Positions 15,937 through 60,000 of a DNA stretch of 64,000 bases are shown piece by piece (the stretch's first letter is position 1; each line of letters opens with the position of its first letter). This stretch comes from Candidatus Latescibacterota bacterium (lineage in GTDB: Bacteria; Latescibacterota; UBA2968; GCA-2709665). The notes beneath the pieces were generated by a model. That model saw only the letters and a list, made by a program, of their open reading frames with translations. It was not told where the DNA came from and made no database searches. Position numbers and translations under genes: made by a program. The DNA lies in NCBI GenBank assembly GCA_965116875.1, contig OZ220733.1, positions 3,281,803 to 3,345,802 on the forward strand, in the 5' to 3' direction.

Positions 15937-16475
15937 GACTATGTAGTCCTCTTCCGCGCGGTGATTCAGCCAGATGCGACCACGGCTGGTCGCCAAGCGA
16001 ATTTCTTGGCCGGGATTGAACTGAGTCGTGCCCTATGAGAGTCCATAGACTCGGCCGATACCAAAATAAGTGGAAGAGATCGAACTGAGAGCCAGATATT
16101 GTGTGGTCGGCTTCGGGCAAGAGCTGATTCGTGAAAACGCTACAATGGGATAAGAAAGAAAACGGTCCGGAGGACTCGCATTGAGTTTTGGATCGTTTGA
16201 TAGAGTGACAAACGCCTTCGAATCATTTCGACAGCTGGGTCTATACCTACTGCGCTACTATGGTAGTGTGCTCCGCTCTCAAGGGTCAATTGGGTTGAAA
16301 TCTTCGTGCTGTGTGCGAAAACTTGACAACCGCTGGTCGGCATCATATCTTCAGTTAAATTACAACAGATAACGGAACTTACAAGCATGCAACAGGCCTA
16401 GTTCGGAAAAATCTAAGGCTTGTGCGTTACGATTGGTATGCAGATGTCCCGATTTGCATTGGATGGAGGATTAGT

Positions 16476-17567
16476 ATGAGCGACCAAGATGAACAACTAA
16501 TCCAACACATCGTGGATATTCGCAATAGACTTAGTCAGGGCGAATACGACAGTGAGGCGGCCGTTAGTAACGGTGTTGTCAAGCGGCTGCTCGAGGCGGT
16601 CGGTTGGCCACGGTATGATCAGCAGGTCGTGCGCCATGAGTTCCCGATTGAAACCAGAAAGGTCGACTTCGCGCTCTGTGACCCACCCGGTGAGCCTCGT
16701 GTCTTGATAGAAGTGAAGGCAGTGGGTTCGGCCGATCAGAAAGGAGAAGACCAACTCTTCCAATATTGCTTTCGTAGAGGTGTAAAACTAGCAATCCTCA
16801 CGGACGGACGCACCTGGAAGTTCTATTTTCCGTACGGCGGAGGAGAATATAGTGATAGGCTGTTTCGCAGTTTGGACATTGCTGCCGAGGACGATACCAC
16901 AACTGCTGAGACGTTTATGTGGTTTCTCGCCATCGATGCTGTCAAGTCGGGTGTCACATTTGATAGATGTGAGGAGGCGTATGCAGAATGCCAGTCTCAG
17001 CGCAGAGCGGCCGAAGCATTTGGTTCTGTATGGAATTCCCTGCTTTGTGGATCCGATAAAGGACTCGTGGACATATTTGCCAGAAAAGTCGAAGAAGACA
17101 CTGGAATTCGACCGAAACAACAAACGGTTGTCGAGTTTATAAGGAGGCAAGCCACACAACGATCTGCGGAAACGCACGAATTGACGGGCGGCCCTTCCCA
17201 AAGTGAAACCAGCACAATCCCCTCCTCTCCGTTTTATCGTCTGAACGGTATCACGGTAAATGGTCGGACTGCAAGGGATGTCTATGTCGGAATCTTTCGG
17301 AAATTTGCAGAACAAGACACCAACTTCTGCCAGCGTTATGATAGCACTCAAAAAAAGGGTGGCAAGCGTCTCCAACTTGCGAGGCGCGCGGAGGACCTGT
17401 ATCCTGCGGGTTCTAAGTTAGCCCAAAAGGAAGCCTGCGAATTGCCAGGCGGATGGTGGCTGGCGACCAATCTCGATAACGATCAGAAGAAGAAGCGAAT
17501 TCAACGTGCATGCGACGTGATGGGAATTAAGTACGGACGCGAATTAATCGTTTCCCTATCCAAATAG
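16476..17567 (+). CDS. PD-(D/E)xK nuclease-fold protein (type I restriction R-subunit N-terminal-like domain) with an uncharacterised C-terminal half
   Basis: Track ORF 16422..17567; likely ATG at 16476 (MSDQDEQ). SEAAVSNGVVKRLLEAVGW...RKVDFAL...PRVLIEVKAVG...GEDQLFQY...LAILTDGRTWKFY matches the HSDR_N-type D...ExK pattern from memory. Confidence 0.6.
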   Translation: MSDQDEQLIQHIVDIRNRLSQGEYDSEAAVSNGVVKRLLEAVGWPRYDQQVVRHEFPIETRKVDFALCDPPGEPRVLIEVKAVGSADQKGEDQLFQYCFRRGVKLAILTDGRTWKFYFPYGGGEYSDRLFRSLDIAAEDDTTTAETFMWFLAIDAVKSGVTFDRCEEAYAECQSQRRAAEAFGSVWNSLLCGSDKGLVDIFARKVEEDTGIRPKQQTVVEFIRRQATQRSAETHELTGGPSQSETSTIPSSPFYRLNGITVNGRTARDVYVGIFRKFAEQDTNFCQRYDSTQKKGGKRLQLARRAEDLYPAGSKLAQKEACELPGGWWLATNLDNDQKKKRIQRACDVMGIKYGRELIVSLSK

Positions 17568-17665
17568 CTTCTGAGCAGATCTGTGCGCCTGGCAAACGGT
17601 TCTTGCTAAAGGACCATTCTGATTCACTTTACTCAGGTCACGACTCGTGCAGCGAATCGTCAACG

Positions 17666-18130
17666 ATGAATCTCAGATTCTATGTGGACCCTGAAACAGG
17701 TTCCATTCACATTTACAGACATGGTGTCGAGGAACGTGAAGTCGAAGACGCAATTAGGGTGCGGGGCGAAGTCCGACCTAGAGGGGAGGGATCGCGCGTT
17801 GCAATTGGACGGACTCGCGGAGTCGATATCTCCGACCGATCGATGCGCCGGGACCCCGAACCAAACTGTGCTTATGTCATTACCGCCTACGAGTTGATAG
17901 GTAAACGGCTAATTGCTCTATCGCAGGCGGATGAGAAGGCGAGAAAGATGAGGAACGCCAACAGGTTTCCGGATCGTTGGGACGAGGACCGTGTCCGACG
18001 CCTTCTGGATCATTACGAATCACAGACAGAAGACGAGACAGCGGCGGAAGATGAAGCGGTATTGGAGGATCCAGACAAGACGCTGATGGAAATACCCAAG
18101 AAAATCAGCAAGAATCCAAAAATGACTTAA
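17666..18130 (+). CDS. Degenerate toxin-antitoxin fusion ORF (small toxin-like N-half, antitoxin-like C-half with a replaced C-terminus)
   Basis: MNLRFYVDPETGSIHIYRHGVEEREVEDA...CAYVITAYELIGK resembles a small TA toxin family; I cannot name the family securely. It continues in frame into MRNANRFPDRWDEDRVRRLLDHYESQTEDETAAEDEAVLEDP..., which is homologous to the 26068..26268 product. Confidence 0.45.
   Translation: MNLRFYVDPETGSIHIYRHGVEEREVEDAIRVRGEVRPRGEGSRVAIGRTRGVDISDRSMRRDPEPNCAYVITAYELIGKRLIALSQADEKARKMRNANRFPDRWDEDRVRRLLDHYESQTEDETAAEDEAVLEDPDKTLMEIPKKISKNPKMT
17978..18100. repeat. 123-bp imperfect direct repeat, left copy (inside the antitoxin-like coding sequence)
   Basis: Manual alignment to 26098..26220 gives 109/123 identical, no indels, including a 32-bp identical run cattacgaatcacagacagaagacgagacagc. 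Confidence 0.9.
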
Positions 18131-18490: not shown

Positions 18491-20215
18491 CTATTTCGCC
18501 TTTAGCCGTAACCATTCGGACTCAGTTAGTCCAACGCGCGATAATTCCCTTCCGAATTGCTCAGCGGCACGTTGCGCATGTTCCGTTTTCAGCTCGGCTA
18601 TCCACTCATAGCCCCTCTCTTCATCATCCCAAAAGACAAATCGATTTCTGTCGTCCTTCGTGGCGCAAAGCGCGTCGTCGTGAGACTTGAAGTGCGAAAC
18701 GAAAACACACGACACCTTGGGACTATGCAATAGTCGGATAAATTCGCCCATGGAGTCGTTGACGCAATGTGTAATTTTACGACCGTCTTCGGCTACACTT
18801 AAGACATTAAATGCAAACGGTTGGCTCTTGCCTTCAATTCTTACACTGTCACACACTGGTTGGAGGCAAAGCAAGTAACGGTTATCGCCGGCCAACTCCC
18901 TAACAATCACGCCCAAATGCAATAATCTCGGAGAATCTCCATATTGTATTCTTTGACTCATTAAGGATGCGAGTTTCTCATTGCATTGAGCTGTTTGACC
19001 ATTGCCCAATAGGTACTCGACTAACTTTATGCGTCCATTTCTGTCATCCTTCCAGATGGGATTGCCGGATTCACCTTGTTCAACTAGACGCCCTACGCGG
19101 CTCCCTCTGAAACTAGAATACTCATACTGAAGATTGGGCCCGTTGCAGAACACATCTTTGACAAAATTGAGACCGTTAGCTCCTTCGCCGATCTTCAATT
19201 CGGCATTTGTGTTTTCTTCCCAGGTTTTCTCGCACCAATCTTCAAGGATTTTTCTTACGCAAACAGCTGATCCTAGAGGCAAATCCCCCAATGTGTCAAT
19301 TAACACGGAATTGAGTTCATCGGTCAATAGGGTTACGATCTGCCGGAAAGCTTCGTCAGGAAGCAGAAGGGCACGGTGAGCCAGAAAGGGTGCATCCAAT
19401 TCTTGGTTGAATCGTGTTAGAATGCGGCGACTATTGTCGCGAATATTCGCGATCCCTCGTAGCACGATTCCCTGCAAGATACCGTTGGTAAGCTGGGAGA
19501 ACTCGCGTATTGTACGCTCAGCCAATTCTGCCTCCGGCACTCGTTCATTTGAAAAATTCGGTTGAGTCACACTTCGAGGTTTTCCGAGTACAACGACCCT
19601 GGCACACTCGGTCGTAAGCACAGGTTGCTCGGATTCACAATCTACACACAGCTGGTGACGATTGAACAAGGCATCGGATATCTCTTTCGCGATTTTCTGG
19701 AGTTCTCTTTCCAGAGTGTAGACAAGCACGAGGCGCAATTGATTCGGTAAATCTGCCTGACTTAGCTTAATGAGGCTTCCAATGAGCTTGATGGCCTTAC
19801 TACCAGATGCATCTCCGAGATCCCAGTCAACAATTGTAACGTCAGCACTCGAGCATAAACCATAGACTTCTGACTCTTCATCGAAAGATGCATTTGCTGG
19901 AGGCTGATACAGCGAACAGATAATCCGCCTCTCGGCGAAACTATTCTGTACATCACGAAATGACGCCTCTTCAAGCTCCTCAGGCATTTGCCCGGCTTCA
20001 TCTTCATTGCCACTCGCTTCGAATGAAGATGTTGGGCTTTTCACCGCTGGCAGGCGTCCCGCTTCCTTTGGATCATCCAGTGGCGTGGGCGGACCCCCAA
20101 TCGCGTCGTCGTATATTCGATCATCAACCAAAACTACAGTCTGGAGATATTGCTCGGCAGAATCATAAACAAACTGTTTGAATGCGGAATTCTTGCTTTC
20201 AGTCATTTTCTTCAT
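18491..20215 (-). CDS. Receiver (REC)-like domain protein with a ~350-aa C-terminal region of unknown function
   Basis: Track ORF 18491..20242. Likely start is ATG 20215 or 20206, overlapping the upstream stop. REC landmarks in track numbering: VVLVDD (36-41), TIVDWDL (Asp139, codon 19828..19826), LVLVYT (Thr176), VVLGKP (Lys221). There is an acidic/Pro-rich insert between beta1 and beta2. I recognise no motif after about aa 230. Confidence 0.7.
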   Translation of the reverse strand: MKKMTESKNSAFKQFVYDSAEQYLQTVVLVDDRIYDDAIGGPPTPLDDPKEAGRLPAVKSPTSSFEASGNEDEAGQMPEELEEASFRDVQNSFAERRIICSLYQPPANASFDEESEVYGLCSSADVTIVDWDLGDASGSKAIKLIGSLIKLSQADLPNQLRLVLVYTLERELQKIAKEISDALFNRHQLCVDCESEQPVLTTECARVVVLGKPRSVTQPNFSNERVPEAELAERTIREFSQLTNGILQGIVLRGIANIRDNSRRILTRFNQELDAPFLAHRALLLPDEAFRQIVTLLTDELNSVLIDTLGDLPLGSAVCVRKILEDWCEKTWEENTNAELKIGEGANGLNFVKDVFCNGPNLQYEYSSFRGSRVGRLVEQGESGNPIWKDDRNGRIKLVEYLLGNGQTAQCNEKLASLMSQRIQYGDSPRLLHLGVIVRELAGDNRYLLCLQPVCDSVRIEGKSQPFAFNVLSVAEDGRKITHCVNDSMGEFIRLLHSPKVSCVFVSHFKSHDDALCATKDDRNRFVFWDDEERGYEWIAELKTEHAQRAAEQFGRELSRVGLTESEWLRLKAK

Positions 20216-23159
20216 TCCAATACAAATAGAATAGAACCCCATCGTCAGGACTTCTATTCAGGTCTAGAGTAAGGGTCATCCCTTCCTTATTTAATACCCT
20301 TTTTGAGATGTAAAGGCCCAGGCCTCGGCCTCGTGGTTTGCGCGAGAATCCCTTTTCAAAAATGGACTCAGCATCTCGACGTGGGATTGGCGGACCGTTG
20401 TTCCCAATGCAATAGGCACTGTCGGTGCAATCTAACTGAATCAGACGTTCACCGGGCTTGTCCTTAAGCCAGAAAATGAAGTTATCCAAAAGATTGACAA
20501 ATACCGGATAAATTGTTGATGGGTACGTGCGAACTATACTATCAACGAAATTCTGTGTCGCATCCAGCTGGATTCTATGACGTTCAAGCCGTACACCGAA
20601 TAGCGCACGAACATAGTAGACGACTTCCTTTCCAGTTATGTCGATTTGTTGACGATATAGTCGCCGCTGTAGAGGCGTAAATAGATTCAAATGAGCATCT
20701 AGATGTTCAAAATTCGTCCTGATTCCGCGGTAGATGGGCTGCAGCCCGTCATTGGCCTTGGCCCACGTTCCGAGTTCTCTCAGATCTCTGCGTATCATCT
20801 TGATTACAGCCTCGAATTCATGGTTTATTACCGCAATCGCAAGTCCCATTTGGACTAGCTCTTCATCCGTATCAGCCTTTTCTTGTAGGGCGTAAAGTTC
20901 AGTTTCCAGGGCTTCTGCGATGTCGAGTTGGCTAATGTCCGTTCCTTCATTAATCCCGTCAGCAATACCTGTCAACATTTCGCGAACACCTTCAAGTCTG
21001 CCAGTGTTCCTTAAGGCTACAGCATCGATTCGTTGTTGGTAGTCTGACCTTATGTCCTCGATCTGCTTTGGCTGTAGATCGCTGAGGTCGCTGTGAGCAA
21101 GATTTAACTCGATTTCTGCAATTACGTTACGCAATTCCCGCAGGGATGCATTAGTCGCACTAATAGAAGCGCGTCGTGCATCTCCTGCTGCTTGCCGTAA
21201 CGCGCTCGATTCAATGCGTAAAGCTGTGTTCTGCGTATCGGCGGCATTTTGAATGAGCTCTTGAATGCGTCGACGTTGGTCAATATGGATATTCGCTATT
21301 TCCGCCGTTGATACAAGTGATTCCCCCACTTGCTTTGCAAAAGGAGCAAAGACATCAGCTTCAAGTCTGTCGCGTTCCCTCTGATACGCTTCCCAATCGC
21401 CGGTAAGCCTCTTGGTCAAACCGACGCCTCGGGGCCGAGTTATTGAATACTTCGCCCGCATCTCTTCGAGCTCCCGATTGGCTTCCCGTTCTGTGTCAAG
21501 AAGCTCGGCGGATGCAATGTCAGGATCACCATTCTCAGATGCTGTTTTCATCCTATCTTGTATATGTTGCAGAAGTTCCGCGATTTCGAATTCGGGTAAA
21601 GCATCTTGTGTTTTGGCAAAAAACATTTCAAGTGCAGTGGCAAGCCTGGCTCGCTTTGCAGTTGTCTGTTTTTCTCTATTCCTGCGGGCACGTTCCAACC
21701 GATCGAGTTCGTCCTTGCGTTCGTGAAAATAGTCTCCTTGGGGCGCTTCTTTGCGAAAAAAATCGGCCGCCAACTGAATGAATACGTTTTCCAACACGCT
21801 TTTGAACTGCTTGTAAGCCTTGTTTTTTTGGAAACCTTCACGCCCCGCTTTTTCTTTTAGTGCCGCGTTGTTCTCTTTCGTGAGGCACACCGCACCATAT
21901 ATCCGCCTATACGAAAAGAAGTAGTAACCCATACCTTTGTTTCGGCGCAACTCGATATCGAGCCAATCTATATCCGAATTGCCGTAAGGGAGGATTCGAA
22001 TCATATCCCGGTAAACGTAGAGCCCGCCGATCCTGTCTAGTTTTTCATTCAGCCTAGTCCAGTCTTCAGGATCCGCCATGCTTTCCCGTTGAATACCTTG
22101 CAAATAGCCAAATTCCAGCTGGAATGGGCCACATGCCGTCGGCTTGCCGCCGCCATCCTTCCATGAGACAATATGATCAGGGAATTCTTGGTCATAAACC
22201 CTTACCTTTCCCCTAAATTGGCCGTATTCATCAATATTGCCACTGACGAACTGATCGGACAGAGCTAAGTCTTCGTTGGTAAAAAACTCATTTGGACCGA
22301 TCAGATCCTCATGCGATGTATCTGTAGGCCAAAAACGGAATGCTGTTTCTAAAGGCAGAGGGTTATCCACCCCAAACGTCCGATTGCAGAAACCTAGAAG
22401 ACACTTGCTGAATTCGTTGGTTCCGTCCGATTGCTCTGACTTGATGTCCGCAAGAATAGTTTCGTCAGCAGGTGCAATATAAAAATGTGTGCCGCTCTCA
22501 CAATTAGCGAGCGAGAGACCCTCAATAGTTCGCTCAAAATTTCGCGGATCGACCTGAAAGCCGGCAATATCCGAAAGAATGCTCGAAAGGTCACACCATG
22601 GGAAATCTCTTTGAAGTTGATTGACATTGGTAGCGTTCTCGTTCAATAAATCGACGATATCCTCATTTGCCGGGAGATTGCCTTCTGGAACGCATCTGAT
22701 AGGGATTTCAATATCCTCTAAATTAACGGATGGTTGTCCGAATAGCCCCCAATGAACATAACACATGACGAGATTGCCGCGATGCCCTTCTCGTGCGGAC
22801 CTCGTTAGCACAAGAACTTGCCGCCCAAGGAATGCGATCGCAAGTCGCCCGATTCCCTTCTCTCCCATGATAGCGCGCTCTGGCTTGTCAGCCGGCCGGA
22901 ACTCCGTACCCTGCGGCGATCTGACCTTACTATCCGTACCAAGGACCAACCATTTCGACTCGAATTCCTCACGCGACATTCCAACCCCATCATCACGAAT
23001 GACTAGGAGCGAATCAGAACCGAAGAAGTCCACTTCAACATGATCTGCATAGGCATCGTGAGCATTCTTAAATAGCTCATTAATGGCGGTGGAGGCGTCG
23101 GCGATTTGCTGCCTTCCCAGCATATCAACCGCTCGCGCTTTTGTTCGGAATCTAGCCAT
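20199..23159 (-). CDS. Hybrid GHKL protein: N-terminal MutL/MORC/Hsp90-type ATPase module, coiled coil, then histidine-kinase DHp + CA core
   Basis: 986 aa. N-terminal Bergerat motifs NELFKNAHDA (27-36), DDGVGM (56-61), GEKGIGRL (99-106). Charged heptad-like region at about 480-770. H-box GLAIAVINHEFEAVI (His780, codon 20822..20820). N-box VFVNLLDNFIFW, GNNGPPI, IFEKGFS, GRGLGLYIS at 886-951. No TM segment seen. Confidence 0.8.
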   Translation of the reverse strand: MARFRTKARAVDMLGRQQIADASTAINELFKNAHDAYADHVEVDFFGSDSLLVIRDDGVGMSREEFESKWLVLGTDSKVRSPQGTEFRPADKPERAIMGEKGIGRLAIAFLGRQVLVLTRSAREGHRGNLVMCYVHWGLFGQPSVNLEDIEIPIRCVPEGNLPANEDIVDLLNENATNVNQLQRDFPWCDLSSILSDIAGFQVDPRNFERTIEGLSLANCESGTHFYIAPADETILADIKSEQSDGTNEFSKCLLGFCNRTFGVDNPLPLETAFRFWPTDTSHEDLIGPNEFFTNEDLALSDQFVSGNIDEYGQFRGKVRVYDQEFPDHIVSWKDGGGKPTACGPFQLEFGYLQGIQRESMADPEDWTRLNEKLDRIGGLYVYRDMIRILPYGNSDIDWLDIELRRNKGMGYYFFSYRRIYGAVCLTKENNAALKEKAGREGFQKNKAYKQFKSVLENVFIQLAADFFRKEAPQGDYFHERKDELDRLERARRNREKQTTAKRARLATALEMFFAKTQDALPEFEIAELLQHIQDRMKTASENGDPDIASAELLDTEREANRELEEMRAKYSITRPRGVGLTKRLTGDWEAYQRERDRLEADVFAPFAKQVGESLVSTAEIANIHIDQRRRIQELIQNAADTQNTALRIESSALRQAAGDARRASISATNASLRELRNVIAEIELNLAHSDLSDLQPKQIEDIRSDYQQRIDAVALRNTGRLEGVREMLTGIADGINEGTDISQLDIAEALETELYALQEKADTDEELVQMGLAIAVINHEFEAVIKMIRRDLRELGTWAKANDGLQPIYRGIRTNFEHLDAHLNLFTPLQRRLYRQQIDITGKEVVYYVRALFGVRLERHRIQLDATQNFVDSIVRTYPSTIYPVFVNLLDNFIFWLKDKPGERLIQLDCTDSAYCIGNNGPPIPRRDAESIFEKGFSRKPRGRGLGLYISKRVLNKEGMTLTLDLNRSPDDGVLFYLYWNEEND

Positions 23160-24267
23160 TTTTTAGATCCGCTGTCTTGACGTGGTCGTTGAAATGTAGA
23201 CCGAATGCTTTTGCAACAGGTACTGGAACCGCATTACCTATCTGACGCGCCATGGATGCCAGTGAACCTGTAAACTCGAAACTATCTGGAAATCCCTGAA
23301 GGCGGGCTGCCTCGCGTACTGATATGGCACGGTCTTGCTTTGGGTGGCCGAATCTTCCGTTTGAATAACTGATGCAGCGCGTCGTTAAACCGGGTGCAGG
23401 CTCGTCCCACGCAAGTCGTGTGTAACAGTCCGAATGGCCATTGTAGCGTTTTCCGTTTTCCTTCAAGGTATAGCATTTCGGCAGGAGCGACTCGGGCCAG
23501 TCCCGACGCCCGTTTTCGTGGGTCTTCCTGATCCGCTTTAGATTCAGATCGGAAAGTGCAGCAGCGCGGTGATTCGGGTATTTTTGTTCATCTGGATGCT
23601 CTGTGCCTTGCTTAATAGTTGGAAGATCTTCTATCGCATCCCTAACCGTTCTATACGCTACGTTTCGATCTCGTCCGTGAGTTGGCTCAGGAAGTGCGAT
23701 CTTACCAAGAAGACTTGCCACTAGAACTAGCCTTCTGCGAACCTGCGGCACTCCATAGTCCTGCGCGAAGATTATACCGTAATCGATATTGTAACCGTCT
23801 CTATCCAATTGATCGACCAAATGTGAAAACGGGTTGTGATTCTCGACGGACACACTTCGAAAACCAGGGACATTTTCAACGAATACCAATTCTGGCAAAC
23901 AATCATGGACAATCGACGAGAAATGTCCCAAAAGACCATGACGATTGTCTTCGGATAACTCCTGCTTAGAATTCGTTTTTTGTTTAGTGAAGGGCTGACA
24001 AGGAGGACAGCCACAGAACAATTTCACCTCGGATTCGCAGCTATAGTAGGCATTTATCCGTTCTGCACTTACTACTTCAATCGGCTCGTTGATCACCGAA
24101 GCACCTTTAAAATTCTTCTTGAATGTACCGACAGCATCAGGACACGAATCAACTGCAAGCGCGTGTTCAATTCCGGATTCGTGAAAACCTAAGCTGGTTC
24201 CGCCGCAACCGGAAAAGAAGTCGAATACTCGAATGGGTATATTAGGGGGCATTTTCGAGCTTGTCAC
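23152..24267 (-). CDS. dcm: DNA (cytosine-5)-methyltransferase
   Basis: 371 aa. Motif I FDFFSGCGGTSLGF, motif IV GCPPCQPFT, motif VI FVENVPGF, motif VIII QDYGVPQVRRRLVLV, motif X GNAVPVPVA. Confidence 0.95.
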   Translation of the reverse strand: MTSSKMPPNIPIRVFDFFSGCGGTSLGFHESGIEHALAVDSCPDAVGTFKKNFKGASVINEPIEVVSAERINAYYSCESEVKLFCGCPPCQPFTKQKTNSKQELSEDNRHGLLGHFSSIVHDCLPELVFVENVPGFRSVSVENHNPFSHLVDQLDRDGYNIDYGIIFAQDYGVPQVRRRLVLVASLLGKIALPEPTHGRDRNVAYRTVRDAIEDLPTIKQGTEHPDEQKYPNHRAAALSDLNLKRIRKTHENGRRDWPESLLPKCYTLKENGKRYNGHSDCYTRLAWDEPAPGLTTRCISYSNGRFGHPKQDRAISVREAARLQGFPDSFEFTGSLASMARQIGNAVPVPVAKAFGLHFNDHVKTADLKNG

Positions 24268-24281
24268 ACTGATTCCTGCCT

Positions 24282-24761
24282 TTAGGGCAGTTGAGCGGGC
24301 ATCGGACCAGAGATTTCAATTGTTTCACGGGCCGACATTAGGAATCGACCAAGCCGAATGCACACTCGACCGAGTGCCTCGTGTCGGTCGATGCCTGGTC
24401 TGCGCACAGAACATTCCCAGATGATAGCAACTCGCCAGCCAAGGCATCGTAGTTCGCAAATAGATTTCAAATCTCGCGCTCTATTGTCTTCTAGTTTCTT
24501 GCGCCACCAGTTTGCTCGTGTATGCGGTATCTTGGATCTCGCGCATCCATGATTGTGCCAGAAGCAGCCGTTAACGAATATGACCACCGAGTATTTTGGC
24601 AGCACTATGTCCGGCTTTCCAGGCAAATCTTTGCGATGCAGCCGGTAGCGAAAGCCTTGGGCGAAGAGACTCCGCCGTACTTCAGTTTCAAGCTTGCTAT
24701 TCTTGCCACCAACCGCCGACATCATCCTGCTTCGAGTTTGTTTGTCAACGAAGTCAGTCAA
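24282..24761 (-). CDS. vsr: Very-short-patch repair endonuclease
   Basis: 159 aa. SRMMSAVGGKNSKLETEVRRSLFAQGFRYRLH..LPGKPDIVLPKY.VVIFVNGCFWHNHGC...NWWRKKLEDNRARD...GWRVAIIWEC is the classical Vsr pattern. Sits 14 nt upstream of dcm. Confidence 0.9.
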   Translation of the reverse strand: MTDFVDKQTRSRMMSAVGGKNSKLETEVRRSLFAQGFRYRLHRKDLPGKPDIVLPKYSVVIFVNGCFWHNHGCARSKIPHTRANWWRKKLEDNRARDLKSICELRCLGWRVAIIWECSVRRPGIDRHEALGRVCIRLGRFLMSARETIEISGPMPAQLP

Positions 24762-24982
24762 TTAGCCGGCCCTACAATTCTTGTACTTTGATTGTCGAAT
24801 GACCCATAATTAATGCGAATATAGGAATGTTAATCAGTTGGACCAATCGTGTTTGTCCAGATTTCCTGAACGGTACACCTTACCCCGCGGAAGTCCACAC
24901 TACTTAAGTGTCAACACTATCACCTTTTCTACGCCGAAATACTCGAATCGAAGTTTCAAACCATCGAACTCTTCTTTGCCCT

Positions 24983-25906
24983 TTATTTTATCCTTAATTC
25001 GAATGCCAGCGGTTCCAATTTGTCTGGCTGGATTGTCCACGGACTTACTAACACGAGGTTTCCGCCCCTTCCGATCGGTGGATCAGTACTTCGCGTTAGT
25101 TTAATGTCCGACACGACTGCAAGTAGTGTATTCGGCGATTTCGCACGAGCGAGAGCGACCTCGTTTCTGGTAACGATGATCTTTTCGCCTTTGCCGGTCG
25201 TCCCTTTAACTTCAACAAACAGCTCGTCACCATTCGAATAGCAGATAAAGTCACAAGATTCCGTTGCCGAAACGTCTTTTACGTTGGGCCAATCGATCGA
25301 CAGGTGATCTTGAACAACGTGCATTGCTCGCAGCTCGATCGCCCGACGTTCTTGCGCATTGAGATGTCGGCCCTGTCCTTGGCTCTTGCGAAGTGGGCGC
25401 ACGATTGGGCTAATCTCCTCATCAGAAACAGAGATGATTGGATGTTGGGCTAACATCGATGCCGCCTCATGGACATTAGTCGGGAGACCGGAGACATAGA
25501 ACCTCATACGCTTATTGTTATTGCCGGGAAATCTTGCGCTTGGTTTTTGACCAATTGAACGTTGTGACCTGCACAGAGCCCTTCGTAACGCTTGAGAATC
25601 AATTGAGCGAATGTCAATTGGGAATGAATCGACCGCTAACCTCCGGTTTTCTCTCGATAAACCCATTCGTTGTGTGGTCTTTGTATCGACCACGGCATCC
25701 TCGAGGAAACAGCCGCTTCGCGCTAGGCGGCTTAAGAGCAACTCAACCCCTTGGTTATATTCGGCATTTCTCTCGTTCGGTCCACCGATCGAACCCCCTC
25801 GTGATTCTACCACAACGGAAGTCTCTCCGTCTGCAAACTCAACCGAAAACTGCGCCTTTATCGGATTTCCGATTCTGTCGCAGACCGTCTGGAGGCCGCT
25901 TGTCAT
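24983..25906 (-). CDS. DUF3883-like (PD-(D/E)xK-type) nuclease-domain protein with an uncharacterised N-terminal domain; candidate restriction or effector nuclease
   Basis: 307 aa. C-terminal ERRAIELRAMHVVQDHL...SCDFICYSNGDELFVEVKGTTGKGEKIIVTRNEVALARAKSPNTLLAVVSDI matches the D...EVK...T.NE pattern of DUF3883-type domains from memory. I do not recognise the N-terminal ~190 aa. Confidence 0.55.
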   Translation of the reverse strand: MTSGLQTVCDRIGNPIKAQFSVEFADGETSVVVESRGGSIGGPNERNAEYNQGVELLLSRLARSGCFLEDAVVDTKTTQRMGLSRENRRLAVDSFPIDIRSIDSQALRRALCRSQRSIGQKPSARFPGNNNKRMRFYVSGLPTNVHEAASMLAQHPIISVSDEEISPIVRPLRKSQGQGRHLNAQERRAIELRAMHVVQDHLSIDWPNVKDVSATESCDFICYSNGDELFVEVKGTTGKGEKIIVTRNEVALARAKSPNTLLAVVSDIKLTRSTDPPIGRGGNLVLVSPWTIQPDKLEPLAFELRIK

Positions 25907-26067: not shown

Positions 26068-26268
26068 GTGAAATATGCGTCCAGATTTCCGAAAGGCTGG
26101 GACGAGGACCGCGTCCGACGCCTCCTGAAACATTACGAATCACAGACAGAAGACGAGACAGCTGCGGAGGATGAAGCGGTAATAGAGGATCCAAGCCAGA
26201 CACTTATGGCAATACCCAAGGCTCTGGTTCCTTCAGTACAAGCGCTTCTGGCGCAACGCGACGAGTGA
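26068..26268 (+). CDS. Small antitoxin-like protein (orphan; no toxin gene adjacent)
   Basis: 66 aa, GTG start with AGGAG 8 nt upstream. RFPKGWDEDRVRRLLKHYESQTEDETAAEDEAVIEDPSQTLMAIPKALVPSVQALL is homologous to the C-half of 17666..18130. Confidence 0.5.
   Translation: MKYASRFPKGWDEDRVRRLLKHYESQTEDETAAEDEAVIEDPSQTLMAIPKALVPSVQALLAQRDE
26098..26220. repeat. 123-bp imperfect direct repeat, right copy
   Basis: See 17978..18100. Confidence 0.9.
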
Positions 26269-26305: not shown

Positions 26306-26965
26306 TCAACCTCCCGTGCCGTCAGACAATCGCTGTCTGTATCTGATTAAATCCTCGCGGGTTATGGCGTCCGGCGGGACCAATTGATACTGTTTCTCCG
26401 CGACGATTCGTATTTCGTCACCGTCCTCCTCAAATTCCATCAGTGCAATAACATCCTGCTGCATGAATTGCGCGCCGATGGGCCGGCAGATCAGGTCTGG
26501 TAATTTGTCCGCACAAAGCGCGATGTCCTGCTCAATCTGAATCCTGCTGAGTCTATCGTTACCACCTTTGGCCTGGACGGGTATCACGTAATGCGAACCA
26601 CTCTTGTCAACACCCACGTAGATTTCGTCGGTTTCGACCTGACCCAACTTCTGCACGGTCGTACGGAGATGGTTTTGCAGTGAGTAACACGCGATACCAA
26701 GGAAGATGTCGATAAGGCGATTGTATCGCACCCGGGCCAGTACAGCCTGTTCATCACCAAACGCATATTTCGCGATGATTCCCGGTGTGGAGTCCGGCAC
26801 TTTGGTCACCGAGAGATTCGGATTCGGCGTGAGCGGATTATCGGTGGCGAGTTCAAACCTGTATTTGCCTCTGCCCGCGCCCCGGATGATCCACGTTTCT
26901 TTGTCCGGTGCCGTACTCCGAATACTGTCGGGGAGTTGTGTCCTGTAGCGGAAACTGTAGACCAC
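26306..26965 (-). CDS. Candidate type II restriction endonuclease (partner of the adjacent methyltransferase)
   Basis: Track ORF (GTG 26965). Possible PD-(D/E)xK-like core ETDEIYVGVD...VIPVQAKGG. The frame stays open and protein-like for 50 more codons upstream (ISTTNRYSAIIEAIFQARYQPGQREVDFVREDIETTASELNIDLPKNLGDV), back to TGA 27121..27119, so the real start is probably near 27115 (see findings). Confidence 0.5.
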   Translation of the reverse strand: MVYSFRYRTQLPDSIRSTAPDKETWIIRGAGRGKYRFELATDNPLTPNPNLSVTKVPDSTPGIIAKYAFGDEQAVLARVRYNRLIDIFLGIACYSLQNHLRTTVQKLGQVETDEIYVGVDKSGSHYVIPVQAKGGNDRLSRIQIEQDIALCADKLPDLICRPIGAQFMQQDVIALMEFEEDGDEIRIVAEKQYQLVPPDAITREDLIRYRQRLSDGTGG

Positions 26966-27132
26966 GTCGCCAAGGTTCTTCGGTAAGTCAATGTTGAGTT
27001 CGGAGGCAGTCGTTTCAATGTCTTCTCGTACAAAATCGACTTCACGTTGTCCCGGCTGATACCTGGCTTGAAAAATGGCTTCGATGATCGCTGAATAGCG
27101 GTTTGTGGTGGAGATAAATCACTCCTCTCTTT

Positions 27133-28425
27133 TCAATCGCCCGGCCATTCCAGCGTCACAACCTCTTCTCTGAGCTGTTCGCCCGTTACCGTTGAAGGCC
27201 TGGTTCGAAACAGATCGATCCCGGTGACATTGTAGCCCTGCGATTTGGCGATGCCGGCCAGGAGTTCGCCCGTTCTGATCATCACCCGAAGATAGGATGC
27301 CTGGTCACCCACCACGTAAGCGAGCTTTGCACCCGGTCTCAATGCCGGCCTGAGAGATGCGAAATGCTTCGCCATCCCCCCGAAATATAGCAGAGTGACC
27401 CGGGAGTACTGGCGCTCGAAACCTGATGTCTTGCCCAGAGAGACTCGGCGTCTTTCAATTTCATCCGCCAGATTTCGTATTGCGAGATTGTCCGCGATCT
27501 CCAGGTCGTCTGTGTCGGCTTTGTATACACCGCGAGTGTTGGACCTGACCAGGTTTTGTTTCAACATCCTCAATTCTTGCCTGTTCCTGATCATGCCAAG
27601 GATGACCGACTCCAGACGGGTCGTCCTGGTGTAATCCTTCTCGTTGGGATATGGCGGGGAAGTAATTACGAAATCTACCGAACCCGGTTTCAGGATGTTT
27701 TCGACGCTCCGAGCGTCTGCATTGAAAATCCGGCTGTCGACTCGTGCCCTGTCACCATATTGCCGAATGTCTCGGGCAGTCGCCCGGATGCATTCGAGCC
27801 ACGCGTCCACGACCGGTGCATCATATTTGATTTTCCCGACCCCGACTTCCGGCCCGAATTTGAGATTGCTGATGCGGTTCACGAGCGCGTTGGCGAGACA
27901 GAGGCGTCCGTAGCGCTGAAAATGATGATCCCCCAACCTGTCGATTGCATTCAGAAGAACGAGTGCCTTGTGCAGGGGACGGGGGCTGATGGAGTCCTTC
28001 AACAGGATTTTCGTCCTTTCATCAGGAAGTTGTTTCAGTACTGTTTTCGAATTTCCATTTTCGGCGAATAGCGGAAGATCTTCCCATTCACCAAAGCCGT
28101 TATTGTCCAGCGTTTTCTTCGTGGACATCGCTACTTCTTCCGCGTACTCGAGCAACTCCCTGTGATTCACAGTCCAGTCCACCTTTACCGAACTTGCGAA
28201 ATACGCCATCGGATTCGGCTCGATTCCGATGCTGCCGATTCCGAGCTTTTTGCACTCAACGGCCGTGGTCCCCGTCCCGCAAAACGGATCAAGGACGGTG
28301 TGGGATGTTCCAACTTCGAACCTTTCGAGATACTCACGGACCAGATGAGGCGGAAATGACAGCACGAACCGGTACCAGTCATGAACTGCTCTGTCTTCGG
28401 TTCTGAGTTTGTTTAAATCCTTCAT
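27133..28425 (-). CDS. Site-specific DNA methyltransferase (N4-cytosine or N6-adenine), SPPY motif
   Basis: 430 aa. AdoMet motif VLDPFCGTGTTAVE near the N-terminus and catalytic VDFVITSPPYPNEKDY about 210 aa later (alpha-type order, target-recognition region between them). Confidence 0.85.
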   Translation of the reverse strand: MKDLNKLRTEDRAVHDWYRFVLSFPPHLVREYLERFEVGTSHTVLDPFCGTGTTAVECKKLGIGSIGIEPNPMAYFASSVKVDWTVNHRELLEYAEEVAMSTKKTLDNNGFGEWEDLPLFAENGNSKTVLKQLPDERTKILLKDSISPRPLHKALVLLNAIDRLGDHHFQRYGRLCLANALVNRISNLKFGPEVGVGKIKYDAPVVDAWLECIRATARDIRQYGDRARVDSRIFNADARSVENILKPGSVDFVITSPPYPNEKDYTRTTRLESVILGMIRNRQELRMLKQNLVRSNTRGVYKADTDDLEIADNLAIRNLADEIERRRVSLGKTSGFERQYSRVTLLYFGGMAKHFASLRPALRPGAKLAYVVGDQASYLRVMIRTGELLAGIAKSQGYNVTGIDLFRTRPSTVTGEQLREEVVTLEWPGD

Positions 28426-50980: not shown

Positions 50981-52072
50981 ATGGCTCCCGTCAAGTTGGG
51001 CGTGGTGGGATGCGGAGCAATTGCACAGGTACAGCACCTGCCGAATCTGGCCGGACTGACCGAAGAGTTCGAGGTCACGGCCGTCTGCGATCTGTCGCCC
51101 GGACTGGCTCGCTGGGCCGCGAAGACGTTCCACGTACCCGCACGGTTTACGGATTTTCGCCGGCTCGTCAGATCGGACGACGTGGAGGCGGTGCTCCTCT
51201 GCCACTCAGACCCGAAGACAGATGCTGCCGTGGCCGCACTGGGCGCGGGAAAGCACGTGCTCATCGAAAAGCCGGTCTGCTTTTCGCTACGTGAGGCGGA
51301 TGCGATCGCCGGCGCCGCCGGGCGGGCCGGTGTGGTTGCCCAGGCAGGTTACATGAAAGTGTACGATCCGGCGTTCGAGACCGCAAAAGCCGAAGTGGAC
51401 GAAATGGACGACATTCGCTTCGTTCAGGTGAATCATCTGCATCCGGACAACCGGCTTCATCTGCGCCAGTTCAGGTTGAAACGGTTCGACGATCTGCCGT
51501 CGGGTCCCGTGTCAGAGACGCATGCAGCCAGGAAAGCGGCGGTACTGGAAGCGATCGGCGAAGCGCCCGATGACGCGGTCCGCACGTTTCATACGCTGTC
51601 GGGAAGCATGATCCACGATCTCTACTGTCTTCGCACGATGCTGGGGATGCCCGAGTCGGTTGTCAGTACGGAGGTGTGGAACGAGGGACGTTCGATTTCG
51701 ACCGTATTGTCATACAGCAACGGCGCGCGTTGCGTCGCGTCCTGGGTCGACCTGCCCGATCTCTGGGACTTTAAGGAGACGCTGGAAGTGTACGGCTGCG
51801 ACCGGCGGGTACTGGTTTCGTATCCTACCGGATTCGCGCGCGGCATTCTGTCCACCGTTGTCCTTCATGAGATCCATGAAACCGGGGAGACGTCAACCCG
51901 GCGGCCGGCGGTGGCGTGGGAGAGCCCCTTTGTGCGAGAACTGCGTCACTTTCACGCGTGCATTACAGGACAGGAAGCATGTCGGACACCCGTAGTGGAC
52001 GCGCGGGAGGATATCAGGTTGATTATCGACGTTACACGTTCCTATATGGAGCGCGGGCCGAAATCAGTTTAG
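50981..52072 (+). CDS. Gfo/Idh/MocA family oxidoreductase
   Basis: 363 aa. KLGVVGCGAIAQVQHLP and HVLIEKPV. Confidence 0.75.
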   Translation: MAPVKLGVVGCGAIAQVQHLPNLAGLTEEFEVTAVCDLSPGLARWAAKTFHVPARFTDFRRLVRSDDVEAVLLCHSDPKTDAAVAALGAGKHVLIEKPVCFSLREADAIAGAAGRAGVVAQAGYMKVYDPAFETAKAEVDEMDDIRFVQVNHLHPDNRLHLRQFRLKRFDDLPSGPVSETHAARKAAVLEAIGEAPDDAVRTFHTLSGSMIHDLYCLRTMLGMPESVVSTEVWNEGRSISTVLSYSNGARCVASWVDLPDLWDFKETLEVYGCDRRVLVSYPTGFARGILSTVVLHEIHETGETSTRRPAVAWESPFVRELRHFHACITGQEACRTPVVDAREDIRLIIDVTRSYMERGPKSV

Positions 52073-52100
52073 CAGAAAGATGACAGCGAAAAAATGAAAC

Positions 52101-52133
52101 AGCCCGGGATGTTCTCCGGGCTTTCCTTTTTTT
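52101..52133. terminator. Candidate bidirectional intrinsic terminator between convergent genes
   Basis: Stem agcccgg / ccgggct with an 8-nt loop, followed by ttcctttttttac on the plus strand. An A-run (gcgaaaaaatg) lies on the other side. Confidence 0.5.
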
Positions 52134-52162
52134 ACGAAACTTCAAATCGGACAAATCTCCTG

Positions 52163-53134
52163 CTAATTCGAACGGTCCGAAACCGGGTAAAGGGTCAGCC
52201 TGCCCTTCCTCCCCGCGCCTTCATCGGCGACGATCAGCGTGCCGTCCGCGGCAAAGGCAATGCCTTCCACCTGTCGATGCCATTTTGCCGGAAACTTCCT
52301 GACCGCAACGACCCGCCCGGTCGGCGTCATTTCCGCGATAGCCGCCTGGCGGGCTGCTACGACGTAATAATTCCCCGACACCGGATGCCGCTCGATTCCT
52401 GACGGCTGAAATTTCTTTCCTTTGATGTGCCGGGAGAATCGTTTGACCGGTATGACGATTCGTGCATCTTCATTCATCTGTTTTTTGTCTATTGACCAAT
52501 GATATAGCGCCAGTTGTCCCTGCAACTCCAGGCTGCGCGCTTCCTTGCACATCAGTACGAGTTCCCGCCGGGAATGGTCATACGCAAGACCCTCGATTTC
52601 GCAATCTCTGCCCACCCCCGTGGCGTAGACATTGAAGAGTACGGACTCCCCGCCATCTCCCTCTCGGCACTCGAACAGCCGTCCGTTGCTTGTGACCAGG
52701 AAGATCCTGTCGTCAGTTGCGGCGATGCCCTCGAAATCGCCGGGAGCCGGGTATTCTGTGTCTGAGAGCTGAAATGTCTTTACAATCGATCCTTCTCGAT
52801 AATCGATCTCGTAAATGATCGCCCGTTCGTCGTTGTGCGCGAGGAGACGATTGTCTCCCGTCATCGCCAATCCGGAGACCTCTTCGAGTTCCCTGGGAAG
52901 CTTCCAGTGCGTCGCGTGCTTCGGGTCCAGAGTAAAGTTCTCGAGAGAGATTCCCTGTTCCGATGCCGCAACCGCGCCCGCCGGAAACTGGCTGCCGGTT
53001 ATACCAGAATCTGCGCCGGCAGGTCCGCCGACAAATTGAGCGGATGCATCCTCGCCCGATCCCATCGTCAACATGCAGAGAAGGACGCCGGGACCAAGAC
53101 GGTTGAGCCGAGATCTGGTGCTTATGGAATTCAT
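52163..53134 (-). CDS. Secreted beta-propeller protein, SdiA-regulated/YjiK-like (tentative)
   Basis: 323 aa. Signal-like N-terminus. LEEVSGLAMTGDNRLLAHNDE...IYEID and GDFEGIAATDDRIFLV resemble the YjiK-family pattern from memory. Confidence 0.45.
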   Translation of the reverse strand: MNSISTRSRLNRLGPGVLLCMLTMGSGEDASAQFVGGPAGADSGITGSQFPAGAVAASEQGISLENFTLDPKHATHWKLPRELEEVSGLAMTGDNRLLAHNDERAIIYEIDYREGSIVKTFQLSDTEYPAPGDFEGIAATDDRIFLVTSNGRLFECREGDGGESVLFNVYATGVGRDCEIEGLAYDHSRRELVLMCKEARSLELQGQLALYHWSIDKKQMNEDARIVIPVKRFSRHIKGKKFQPSGIERHPVSGNYYVVAARQAAIAEMTPTGRVVAVRKFPAKWHRQVEGIAFAADGTLIVADEGAGRKGRLTLYPVSDRSN

Positions 53135-53160
53135 TTCAGAGTTTGGCGATTCGATCGGGC

Positions 53161-53325
53161 CGCGAACTACCAGTTCGCGTTACGGGAATCAGCGCGTCAG
53201 GCGGCCATGTCGTCGCGCGAACTACCAGTTCGCGTTACGGGAATCAGCGCGTCAGGCGGCCTTGTCGCGGCGTGAACTACCAGTTCGCGTTACGGGAACG
53301 TGCGCCTGCCAGGACGGGCACCGCA
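53161..53325. repeat. 3 x 55-bp tandem repeat, each unit starting with a 19-bp palindrome CGCGAACT-ACC-AGTTCGCG
   Basis: Units start at 53161, 53216 and 53271. The first two are near identical. The third has cgtg for cgcg and diverges after about 30 bp. Confidence 0.9.
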
Positions 53326-53418
53326 ATAGAGGGGAGCCTGGTCGCAGGTGCCGGCGGTGATCCTCCGTAGCTCTTTGCGGCGCGGGGTCATTTGTATTAT
53401 CTGAATCAAGATCAGTGG

Positions 53419-54357
53419 TTACAAGCTCTGGTCTGTCTCATCTTCCATTAATTCTACGTCCTTTATCTGCTTTTTCCCTCTCTTGCCCAGGTCCCTGATA
53501 AGTGAGGAAAGGTCGACGGATTGACTTGAAGTAACCTCGTACACAACGACGACGGTCCCATCTTCATTCTCGATTATCTCGGACAAATTCCACTTGATCG
53601 CGCTGTAATCAAGGGTAGGGGCTGCTGCCTTTTGCGCCGCATTGACGTTCGTTGCGTGCACGGCAATTCGGGATTCACGGGTATCTCCACTGGCCGTGTC
53701 CCCGGTTGCGGAGGACTCCGCGGGCTTTGTGGGTGAAACGATTCTCCAGCCGGAAAGGACTGGAGGGCGTGCTGCATAGTTGGTCTTCCACACGCTCAGT
53801 GTAATGGTTACGAAAGCCAACGATGCGATGTAAGCGACTGTTGTGAGCTGGGTGCCGGCGGCCAGCCCGATTCCTATAACCATAAACATGTAGACGGCGT
53901 CCATCGTTTCCTTGAGCGAGATCCGGAAACTGACGGCGGCCACGATGCCCGCCAGGCTGAACGCAAGCGCGAGGCTGCCCTTGACCAGGAAAACTACCAG
54001 CGAGATGGCGACGGGCATCACGAGCAGCGTGTGCGCAAAGGATTGGCTGTATTTCTTCAGTGGCCGCGTCCAGGCATAAACCCATGTGATCGGGAGCGTC
54101 ACCGCGAAGGCAAGTACCAGAGCGACCACCACAGGAATTGTGTGCGCGGGATCGAGCAGGCGGTTGACGCCTTCCTTGATGTTTCCCAGTGGAATCGCTG
54201 AATCGGCGCCCGACCCGAGCGATTTTCCCACGAATATGCGTTCACGCTCCTGGGCGACGTAATAGAGGATTTCGGGGAAAATATGAAAAACCGTATTGAG
54301 AACCACTATCCAAGTAATATAGTAAATGGCCAGCCGTACGATGATGTTGTTAGACAC
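53419..54357 (-). CDS. Integral membrane protein, DUF4956-like (tentative)
   Basis: 312 aa. Several TM helices. LAGIVAAVSFRISLKETMDAVYMFMVIGIGLAAG resembles the conserved DUF4956 core from memory. Confidence 0.45.
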   Translation of the reverse strand: MSNNIIVRLAIYYITWIVVLNTVFHIFPEILYYVAQERERIFVGKSLGSGADSAIPLGNIKEGVNRLLDPAHTIPVVVALVLAFAVTLPITWVYAWTRPLKKYSQSFAHTLLVMPVAISLVVFLVKGSLALAFSLAGIVAAVSFRISLKETMDAVYMFMVIGIGLAAGTQLTTVAYIASLAFVTITLSVWKTNYAARPPVLSGWRIVSPTKPAESSATGDTASGDTRESRIAVHATNVNAAQKAAAPTLDYSAIKWNLSEIIENEDGTVVVVYEVTSSQSVDLSSLIRDLGKRGKKQIKDVELMEDETDQSL

Positions 54358-54817
54358 AGCATCCTCCTGCGTCAGCGTGCGTTGCGTCCCACTCCAGGAA
54401 ATCGCAGAATTAACCTTGATTCCTCATTTTTCGAGGACGTTAATTCGAATATGTGTCAGTAAAAAAGGCGATTTAATTGCTGATTACCAGGATACACCAG
54501 GACACTGTACGTGAACGGAAAAAATGTCCTTCATGACGACCATTTCGGCCCGTTTCGAAAGGTTTCGTCGCGGTGCCGCGTTGCGGCTTTCGCGGAATTG
54601 AGGTTAACCGCCGCTCTGGAGGATCAATCTCCAGGTTGTGGCGCGGCCGATCGATTCGTACTTCTCGCAGTGGTTGTCAGAATCCGTTTGGATACTGACG
54701 ATGAGATTCGGCACGAACCCGGATAGACCGCTTGAGGACAATATACATTGATCTCAGTGAATCGTTACGGTTAAATTGCGTGGCGTTAGGGCCGTACCAA
54801 TGTTACCGGGGATGCTT

Positions 54818-57538: not shown

Positions 57539-57634
57539 TGTTGTCCTTTGCGTTTCAGGGTGGTTCGGTCAAACTGATGTTGTCTGAAGGTGTCTCGACA
57601 GCCGTCCGTTCACGGATAGTGGTGATCCCGCATA

Positions 57635-59884: not shown

Positions 59885-60000
59885 CCGGTTACCTGAATAA
59901 TAAGTACTCTGCCGATTTCTAAGTCACACGTTACAACAACAAACTGGGTTCTTCAACGTACGGGGACGCGGCGACCGATCAGCCCGGAATTCACAACTCG

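Follow-up and report, generated by a model that had tools for sequence, protein, structure and literature searches.

Contig OZ220733.1 of a Candidatus Latescibacterota bacterium carries, in a 64,000-nucleotide stretch analysed here in full (the window), a Vsr endonuclease gene and a Dcm methylase gene followed by a large histidine kinase gene and a receiver gene (18491-24761, minus strand). The question raised by this locus is what a two-component pair does in one operon with a 5-methylcytosine (5mC) methylase, and which of its parts would deliver the output. A preliminary description of this DNA had proposed an undescribed methylation-linked defence system. We propose, with a probability of about 0.5, that the four genes are a self-contained, horizontally mobile, methylation-linked and phosphorelay-gated defence cassette (dcm, kinase, receiver and usually vsr) in which the C-terminal half of the receiver protein, hereafter the tail, is the output. 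We infer the defence function, DNA sensing, phosphotransfer and effector activity. Evidence for the proposal includes a gene order conserved across phyla, intact signalling residues, and a tail whose type is exchanged independently of that of the methylase.

Operon organization

The locus consists of four open reading frames (ORFs; lengths in amino acids, aa):

24282-24761, minus strand: vsr, 159 aa, TTG start
23152-24267, minus strand: dcm, C5-cytosine DNA methyltransferase, 371 aa, GTG start
20199-23159, minus strand: paraMORC-type histidine kinase, 986 aa, with HATPase_c_3, a middle domain, a charged coiled-coil-like region, HEF_HK and HATPase_c
18491-20206, minus strand: receiver protein of the Response_reg_2 family, 571 aa, with a receiver domain and a C-terminal half of about 350 aa

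All four minus-strand ORFs listed in the preliminary description were present, and each motif string quoted there was found in the translations. Inspection of the junction sequences revealed an 8-nucleotide overlap between the dcm stop and the kinase start (ATGGCTAG, ATG start), a second 8-nucleotide overlap between the kinase stop and the receiver start (ATGACTGA, ATG start), and a 14-nucleotide spacer containing AGGCAGGA between the vsr stop and the GTG of dcm. The spacer and the first overlap were as described earlier; the receiver start given at 20215 was not. At its longest the receiver ORF spans 18491-20242 (minus strand, 583 aa), and both homologues (consensus MTE...) and public gene calls place its start at 20206 (MTESK...), which yields the 571-aa protein. 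Kinase conservation was assessed from an alignment and profile of 48 homologues. Residues 1-12 were near-invariant among them, and the long, overlapping kinase start is therefore the real one. The earlier claim of a single translationally coupled operon is supported, with overlaps now placed at both the dcm/kinase and the kinase/receiver junctions. Scans for promoters and terminators gave no signal above shuffled controls. Public gene calls for the contig (ENA, Logan) miss the TTG-started vsr and show an antisense 80-aa ORF instead (L001 5416-5658).

Profile searches confirmed the domain calls for the first two genes. Dcm matched Pfam DNA_methylase over aa 12-355 (1.5e-57) and TIGR00675 (2.6e-47), and its translation shows the catalytic motifs PPCQPF and ENVPG. 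Vsr matched Pfam Vsr from aa 2 (2.6e-30) and TIGR00632 over aa 1-117 (1.3e-40). Dcm sets 5mC, and Vsr repairs the T:G mismatches that arise from 5mC deamination; with a C5-methylase carrying its catalytic motifs and an adjacent Vsr, the two genes form a 5mC modification and repair pair.

Distribution and conserved unit

A genome-wide scan yielded 69 loci. The phyla represented include Desulfobacterota, Gemmatimonadota, Nitrospirota, Acidobacteriota, Verrucomicrobiota, Planctomycetota, Bacteroidota, Actinomycetota, Chloroflexota and Spirochaetota, together with several classes of Pseudomonadota. Synteny was counted in 50 loci, those in which the receiver gene was complete and sufficient DNA lay upstream. 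The kinase lay directly upstream of the receiver in 49 of these, and dcm immediately preceded the kinase in 41, in line with the tight link to a 5mC methylase suggested earlier. Because the dcm-kinase-receiver order recurs at this frequency (41-49 of 50 loci) in unrelated phyla, more than ten of them, it is not a product of chance. Of the 32 loci in which a vsr gene was detectable, 6 have it upstream of dcm, 18 immediately after the receiver gene and 8 elsewhere in the locus; within 10 kilobases of the cassette none was detected in the other 18. Some Streptomyces loci have dcm, and then a Vsr-containing gene, slightly further upstream.

All-against-all clustering of the neighbouring ORFs returned only two recurrent partners, dcm (51 loci) and vsr (39 loci), the next cluster covering 7 loci. 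Among the 137 nearest flank genes no restriction enzyme recurred; these genes were heterogeneous and included integrases, a resolvase, a transposase, TraG and other methylases. By these data the cassette stands on its own, without a recurrent restriction enzyme. Three genes that move as a unit must bring their own output, and a purely regulatory role for the pair is therefore less likely. The receiver family comprised about 1,490 clusters at 50% identity (E<=1e-3), and among the 150 best-matching clusters nearly all proteins were 520-600 aa long with the same layout. The receiver protein had one match in the plasmid collection and none in the phage collection.

In two Streptomyces loci (L046 5787-6575 and L067 2673-3485) the gene after dcm encodes a protein of 260-270 aa whose C-terminal half holds a Vsr domain; the protein also has a weak REase_MTES_1575 match and about 120 unassigned N-terminal aa.

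Kinase

Four regions were delimited in the 986-aa protein:

22794-23093, minus strand: N-terminal Bergerat (GHKL) ATPase, aa 23-122, HATPase_c_3 1.1e-13
21750-22784, minus strand: middle domain, aa 126-470, with the invariant motifs CGP, YRD..R.LPYG..D.DWL and EKxGREGFQ
20652-20852, minus strand: HEF_HK dimerisation/phosphotransfer domain with His780, aa 770-836, PF19191 2.7e-27
20217-20519, minus strand: catalytic ATP-binding domain, aa 881-981, HATPase_c 5.7e-14

These matches fell where the preliminary description had predicted them, an HATPase_c_3 domain at about aa 20-120 and HisKA-like plus HATPase_c domains at about aa 770-980, the HisKA-like part being HEF_HK. HATPase_c_3, HEF_HK and HATPase_c in this order constitute the group 1 architecture. 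The Pfam domains of both kinase and receiver passed the curated cut-offs; HEF_HK scored 95.5 bits against a cut-off of 24.1 and covered 67 of 67 profile positions.

Across the 48 kinases, E28, N32, D35, D56, G58, G60 and G99-G104 were invariant in the GHKL domain, as were H780 and E781 in HEF_HK (F782 nearly so) and N889, D892, N893, N920, G922 and G944-L949 in HATPase_c. With His780 and the ATP-binding N and G motifs invariant, the catalytic residues of the cytoplasmic His-Asp pair postulated earlier are intact. No hydrophobic segment was evident by eye in the kinase translation, to which no transmembrane predictor was applied. When the 48-kinase profile was compared with the PDB, aa 754-983 aligned with the complete kinase core of ThkA (3a0r, E=7e-11) and aa 16-127 gave a weak match to Hsp90/HtpG; nothing matched between aa 127 and 750. 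The middle domain had no Pfam or PDB match and is probably an S5-like transducer, by analogy with the proteins of Iyer et al. 2008 (PMC2292703).

PADLOC returned only partial GHKL matches of the kinase to Type II restriction-enzyme models (REase_II PDLC03419, 7.9e-11). The NCBIfam BbrUII/HgiDII family (NF050001) matched aa 9-125 only (5.8e-17), with 61.5 bits against a cut-off of 550. No nuclease domain was detected in the kinase by Pfam or by the PDB profile search.

Receiver protein and its tail

The receiver gene was divided as follows:

19574-20149, minus strand: receiver (REC) domain, aa 32-223 of the 583-aa ORF, phospho-acceptor Asp139 (D127 in the 571-aa protein)
18983-19294, minus strand: hypervariable segment 1, about aa 317-420 of the 583-aa ORF, helical with a small beta-hairpin, the family's least conserved part
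18839-18868, minus strand: core motif C-x-Q-P-x-C-D-S-x-R, with C447, P450, C452, D453 and R456 (571-aa numbering) at least 90% conserved
18593-18817, minus strand: hypervariable segment 2, about aa 476-550 of the 583-aa ORF, beta-rich, within the region of weak MazF/PemK fold matches
18494-18592, minus strand: conserved C-terminal peptide ...SRVGLTESEWLRLKAK, with R557, G559, E562, E564, W565 and R567 at least 90% conserved

The expected receiver-type match at the N-terminus was found as Response_reg_2 (PF19192), at 5e-32 and 111.9 bits (cut-off 27), with 177 of 180 profile positions covered. D28, D29, D127, T164 and K209 (571-aa numbering) were at least 90% conserved in 112 relatives with a median identity of 26%. 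An AlphaFold2 model of the protein (predicted local distance difference test, pLDDT, 75.9) consisted of the receiver domain with a disordered insert (aa 34-81), a helical domain (225-420), a beta-rich domain (430-540) and a terminal helix, the helical region bearing a beta-hairpin at aa ~314-385. Model confidence was low in the conserved C-terminal peptide, which may serve in docking. AlphaFold on the tail alone, with 19 sequences, performed worse (pLDDT 58.6).

A divergent alignment of the tail retained R256, D271, H277, E297, C447, C452, D453 and R456 as conserved polar residues. The tail was always joined to the receiver domain: an exhaustive profile search for fusions to other sensors found none, only the same architecture and fragments. 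Two nuclease folds were considered for the tail and rejected. The conserved residues, D271-x5-H277 and P-x-C-D453, fit neither the Rx4-6H motif of HEPN proteins nor the D...(D/E)xK motif of PD-(D/E)xK enzymes, and there was no structural match to either.

Mosaic evolution

The clearest view of how the parts assort came from a Geobacter-like clade in which the kinases are 83-93% identical. Two Dcm types occur there, about 53% identical to each other (about 50% in the target-recognition region) and 74-94% within type, together with two tail types that are 22-28% identical in aa 313-412. Four of the four combinations of Dcm type and tail type were found on this one kinase backbone.

A pair of cassettes, L012 and L020, shows where the exchange falls. 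Their DNA identity was about 0.75-0.97 across dcm, the kinase gene and the first ~900 nucleotides of the receiver gene, dropped to 0.39-0.53 for about 850 nucleotides, and returned to 0.81 in vsr. At the protein level the low-identity stretch corresponds to the two hypervariable segments around the C-x-Q-P-x-C-D core, ahead of the conserved C-terminal peptide. Both segments were only 0.12-0.32 identical between the two cassettes; the dcm, kinase and receiver N-terminal halves were ~80-97% identical.

Co-variation between the tail and the Dcm recognition region was weak (partial correlation, r=0.13, p=0.04). That between the kinase coiled-coil and the Dcm recognition region was modest (r=0.29) and could be explained by physical linkage. 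A matching of tail or kinase to Dcm specificity is argued against by the factorial pattern in the Geobacter-like clade. We read these patterns as a sign that the methylase requires no matching tail or kinase, and that the tail is under diversifying or recombinational pressure, such as a conflict system would be expected to exert on a sensor or effector surface. Neither kinase nor tail tracks Dcm type, and sequence specificity is therefore more likely to come from Dcm than from a matched restriction domain. The 300 nucleotides upstream of dcm were unrelated between closely related cassettes and did not sort by tail type; an operator tracking tail type was rejected, the upstream regions being unrelated.

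Proposed function and alternatives

We propose the following course of events. Dcm would mark resident DNA with 5mC, and Vsr would mend the T:G mismatches left by its deamination. The kinase would be a constitutive dimer, held together by the HEF_HK helices, in which the MORC/MutL-like GHKL ATPase and the middle domain act as an ATP-driven gate reporting the state of the DNA or of an invader. The signal would pass along the charged region of about 300 aa to His780, and a phosphoryl group would move from there to receiver Asp139 (583-aa numbering), both residues being conserved. Phosphorylation would then switch on the C-terminal half of about 350 aa as the output of the system, probably an enzyme or a toxin whose variable surfaces are under arms-race selection. 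A model with a GHKL sensor and a receiver effector is plausible and fits the evidence. A bolder version of it is possible, and we put it forward only tentatively: the tail would be a new phosphorylation-activated effector fold, made of the helical domain and the small C-x-Q-P-x-C-D barrel, with two hypervariable surfaces swapped as cassettes under phage pressure and Dcm as the sequence reader. It would represent a widespread class (~1,500 clusters at 50% identity) of 'phosphorelay-gated restriction' without a conventional restriction enzyme.

Several observations weigh against a defence cassette with the tail as effector. The tail carries no enzyme or toxin signature that we could detect: none of 86 divergent members matched a Pfam family, no PDB sequence was matched, three Foldseek searches gave nothing below E=1e-3, and no PADLOC model exists for the receiver protein. 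Those three Foldseek searches agreed best on a local match to MazF/PemK, with E ~0.08-0.5, a probability of at most 0.94 and a TM-score of 0.5-0.6 over about 130 columns. A MazF/CcdB-like toxin was rejected as an assignment and kept as a lead only, since the match was never significant in Foldseek and hhalign against 111 MazF sequences gave a probability of 0.2%. The modelled structure of hypervariable segment 1 could also be that of a winged-helix DNA binder, as would suit a transcription factor. The role of the GHKL module as a DNA sensor is drawn by analogy from MORC and MutL. If the two mosaic Dcm types had the same specificity, as they could, the case against a need for matching would be weaker. 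Finally, the two studies most relevant to the family favour a regulatory role for the kinase and receiver (PMC8011034; 10.1101/2025.09.30.679545).

That regulatory role is the alternative we take most seriously, and we judge it rather unlikely. The pair would be a two-component system whose kinase senses infection or nucleotide state and whose phosphorylated receiver is a transcription factor inducing dcm, with vsr or neighbouring restriction genes; the pair would have no effector activity of its own. It is the model of Bellieny-Rabelo et al. (PMC8011034), who reported that Pectobacterium homologues are transcriptionally induced in planta, and of the authors of the Ambrosia defence system, whose reporter was induced on infection (10.1101/2025.09.30.679545); the helical region with its beta-hairpin could be the winged helix that it calls for. 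However, apart from a methylase and a repair nickase the conserved unit offers no target for regulation, and helix-turn-helix (HTH) families matched 0 of 86 tails. The tail is also far larger than a DNA-binding output would require, and its polar residues are more conserved. The unrelated sequences upstream of dcm in close cassettes, unsorted by tail type, also speak against it.

An ordinary Type II restriction-modification (RM) system, in which the kinase would be a BbrUII/HgiDII-like GHKL restriction enzyme, the cognate of Dcm, with the receiver as an accessory, appears improbable. It can draw on the BbrUII/HgiDII and REase_II matches of the N-terminal ~115 aa of the kinase. The DefenseFinder Type II restriction-enzyme profile moreover flags AbrB, the Ambrosia kinase (Table S1, 10.1101/2025.09.30.679545), and automatic tools may therefore label dcm and kinase as a Type II RM system. 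Yet the match is limited to the GHKL fold and lies far below the family cut-off, the kinase has no detectable nuclease domain, and its C-terminus is a complete histidine-kinase core. In addition, Dcms of ~53% identity stand beside kinases of ~90% identity, an arrangement that would be lethal for a matched enzyme unless specificity were shared. Least probable of all we consider a repair accessory, in which the MutL-like GHKL protein would be a dedicated stimulator of Vsr at Dcm-induced mismatches, like E. coli MutL. A MutL-Vsr interaction is established (cited in PMC2292703) and vsr is frequent in the cassette, but the 18 loci with no detectable vsr do not fit this account, and it leaves the kinase core, the receiver and the hypervariable tail unexplained.

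Genomic island and neighbouring genes

The cassette lies within a low-GC island that holds two other restriction-type elements. GC content was 0.45-0.52 over 16-29 kilobases of the window, against 0.60-0.66 across most of the flanking sequence, and the lower-GC island noted earlier is thereby measured. Two features lie upstream of the cassette:

24983-25906, minus strand: NOV_C gene, 307 aa, 221 nucleotides upstream of vsr
26306-28425, minus strand: second RM pair, a 219-aa restriction-enzyme match and a 430-aa N6/N4 methylase

The gene described earlier as DUF3883-like is by Pfam a NOV_C protein; as a member of the conserved unit it did not hold up. A NOV_C gene stands beside the cassette only in the window genome and, weakly, in one other locus, and it is outside the conserved unit. 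The protein is a fusion of an McrA-like N-terminal domain and a C-terminal NOV_C/DUF3883 PD-(D/E)xK domain. Its N-terminal domain aligned along its full length with the 5mC-reading N-terminal domain of EcoKMcrA (PDB 6r64, E=4e-4) and matched PADLOC mREase_IV (7e-4). These matches make it a candidate modification-dependent (Type IV) restriction enzyme beside a 5mC methylase.

The second RM pair proved to be real. Its 219-aa protein matched the PADLOC REase_II (Type II) model at 8.5e-96 and no Pfam family. The N-terminus of its 430-aa methylase matched only the C-terminal part of the Pfam profile, which suggests a permuted motif order. Between this pair and the NOV_C gene lies a 66-aa ORF (26068-26268, plus strand) without a Pfam match.

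On the other side of the cassette, a solitary 381-aa protein (16422-17567, plus strand) has an HSDR_N_2 (PD-(D/E)xK) domain and a sub-threshold C-terminal match to the SeqA C-terminal domain (E=0.005). The SeqA C-terminal domain binds hemimethylated DNA, and the 381-aa protein may be another methylation-reading nuclease of the island. A 175-aa ORF (17603-18130, plus strand), convergent with the receiver gene, matched no family; its C-terminal 60 aa recur at 77% identity just 3' of a homologous cassette from Gemmatimonadota (L003 6503-6685). GC drops again, to 0.51-0.57, at 52000-63000 near the right end of the window, where another island may lie. No tRNA was found in the window.

Comparison with known systems

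The claim that no named system covers these genes had to be given up. Each half of the two-component pair has its own curated Pfam family, PF19191 and PF19192 respectively, set up for the study of Bellieny-Rabelo, Pretorius & Moleleki (Genome Biol Evol 2021, PMC8011034), where the association was already described. In 644 regions from 628 strains, that study found kinase and receiver genes linked in 91.6%, usually with a C5-methylase upstream; Vsr occurred in 20 genera, and RM domains were enriched nearby. Its authors proposed paraMORC ATPases as ancestors and, without settling on a function, suggested that the signalling controls RM. The window cassette has both signature domains, the predominant group 1 kinase architecture, a soluble kinase, adjacent kinase and receiver genes, a C5-methylase immediately upstream and Vsr nearby, and no defining feature differs. 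The C-terminal half of the receiver, the autonomy of the three genes and mosaic swapping are not analysed in PMC8011034.

Ambrosia is a phage defence system validated in Pseudomonas aeruginosa (10.1101/2025.09.30.679545). It comprises AbrR-AbrA-AbrB-AbrC-AbrD, that is, an XRE regulator, an N6-methylase, a dual-GHKL kinase, a 209-aa receiver and an HNH endonuclease. Defence requires every gene, the GHKL residue Asn40 (N40A abolishes it) and receiver Asp60, and methylation by AbrA does not protect phage (10.1101/2025.09.30.679545). The two systems share the order methylase, dual-GHKL kinase, receiver and small endonuclease, and the GHKL and middle domains of their kinases are homologous: AbrB (Table S1 sequence) aligned with aa 4-443 of the window kinase at 24% identity (E=4e-26), including the CGP, YRD..PYG..DWL and REG motifs, and N32 of the window kinase aligned with AbrB N40. 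The candidate Type IV enzyme encoded by the NOV_C gene further recalls the Type IV HNH of Ambrosia.

The differences concern every component. The Ambrosia methylase is an N6-adenine enzyme (Eco57I-type) and that of the window a C5-cytosine enzyme; the Ambrosia kinase has about 750 aa without a HEF_HK match, whereas the window kinase, with 986 aa, is 240 aa longer and has HEF_HK. The Ambrosia receiver has about 210 aa, lacks the 350-aa tail and is not a Response_reg_2 protein, in contrast to the 571-aa Response_reg_2 protein of the window. The endonuclease is HNH in one and Vsr in the other, and the XRE gene of Ambrosia has no counterpart seen beside the window cassette; a Pfam search found neither an HNH nor an HTH gene in or beside it. 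Deinococcus gobiensis plasmid P2 (L072, 397192-402805) carries a complete Ambrosia-type cluster with a 215-aa receiver and HNH. Its kinase matched the window kinase in the GHKL (E=4e-19) and middle (E=4e-11) domains and had no HEF_HK match. AbrC and its Deinococcus counterpart showed only a weak Response_reg match and no PF19192, and hhalign of AbrC with the receiver alignment gave a probability of 0.1%. Since PF19191 and PF19192 are present, the kinase is homologous to AbrB and AbrC is unrelated to Response_reg_2, the window cassette is by its sequences a member of the HEF_HK/Response_reg_2 family and a sister of Ambrosia, not Ambrosia itself. Separately, Ambrosia-type kinases were found on 105 plasmids, 43 of them from Campylobacter and most predicted to be conjugative, a spread well outside the Gammaproteobacteria-centred distribution of the preprint (10.1101/2025.09.30.679545).

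More distant systems share single features with the window cassette. Detocs consists of the kinase DtcA, the buffer receiver DtcB and the receiver-effector DtcC, and has no methylase, MORC-like sensor or Vsr. It resembles the window cassette by analogy, as a defensive phosphorelay with a receiver-fused effector output of the kind proposed here. No Detocs model was among the PADLOC matches of kinase and receiver, the Detocs content of PADLOC 2.0.0 not having been verified. The paraMORC/MORC GHKL ATPases, placed in RM operons by Iyer, Abhiman & Aravind 2008 (PMC2292703) and including paraMORC3 (GHKL-Shedu, VcSduA), share the N-terminal GHKL and middle domains and the association with Dcm and Vsr in RM-like operons. 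Unlike the window kinase, they end in nuclease, TIR or unknown domains or pair with helicases, and none has a histidine-kinase core with a cognate receiver. BbrUII/HgiDII enzymes show N-terminal GHKL similarity and have the same kind of 5mC methylase and Vsr neighbours, but the remainder of the kinase is unrelated to them.

Beyond the literature, three points are new: the autonomy of the cassette, the homology of its kinase to that of Ambrosia, and the independent assortment of Dcm type and hypervariable tail. They are leads, not a new kind of system. They concern a methylase-kinase-receiver unit carried by thousands of bacteria, and the sequence analysis narrows the question of its output to the receiver tail. 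If the tail is a phospho-switched effector, the cassette would stand beside Detocs as a second route from His-Asp signalling straight to immunity, and would account for what is sensed by the MORC-like ATPases of RM-like operons; Ambrosia, moreover, would gain a much larger and older relative.

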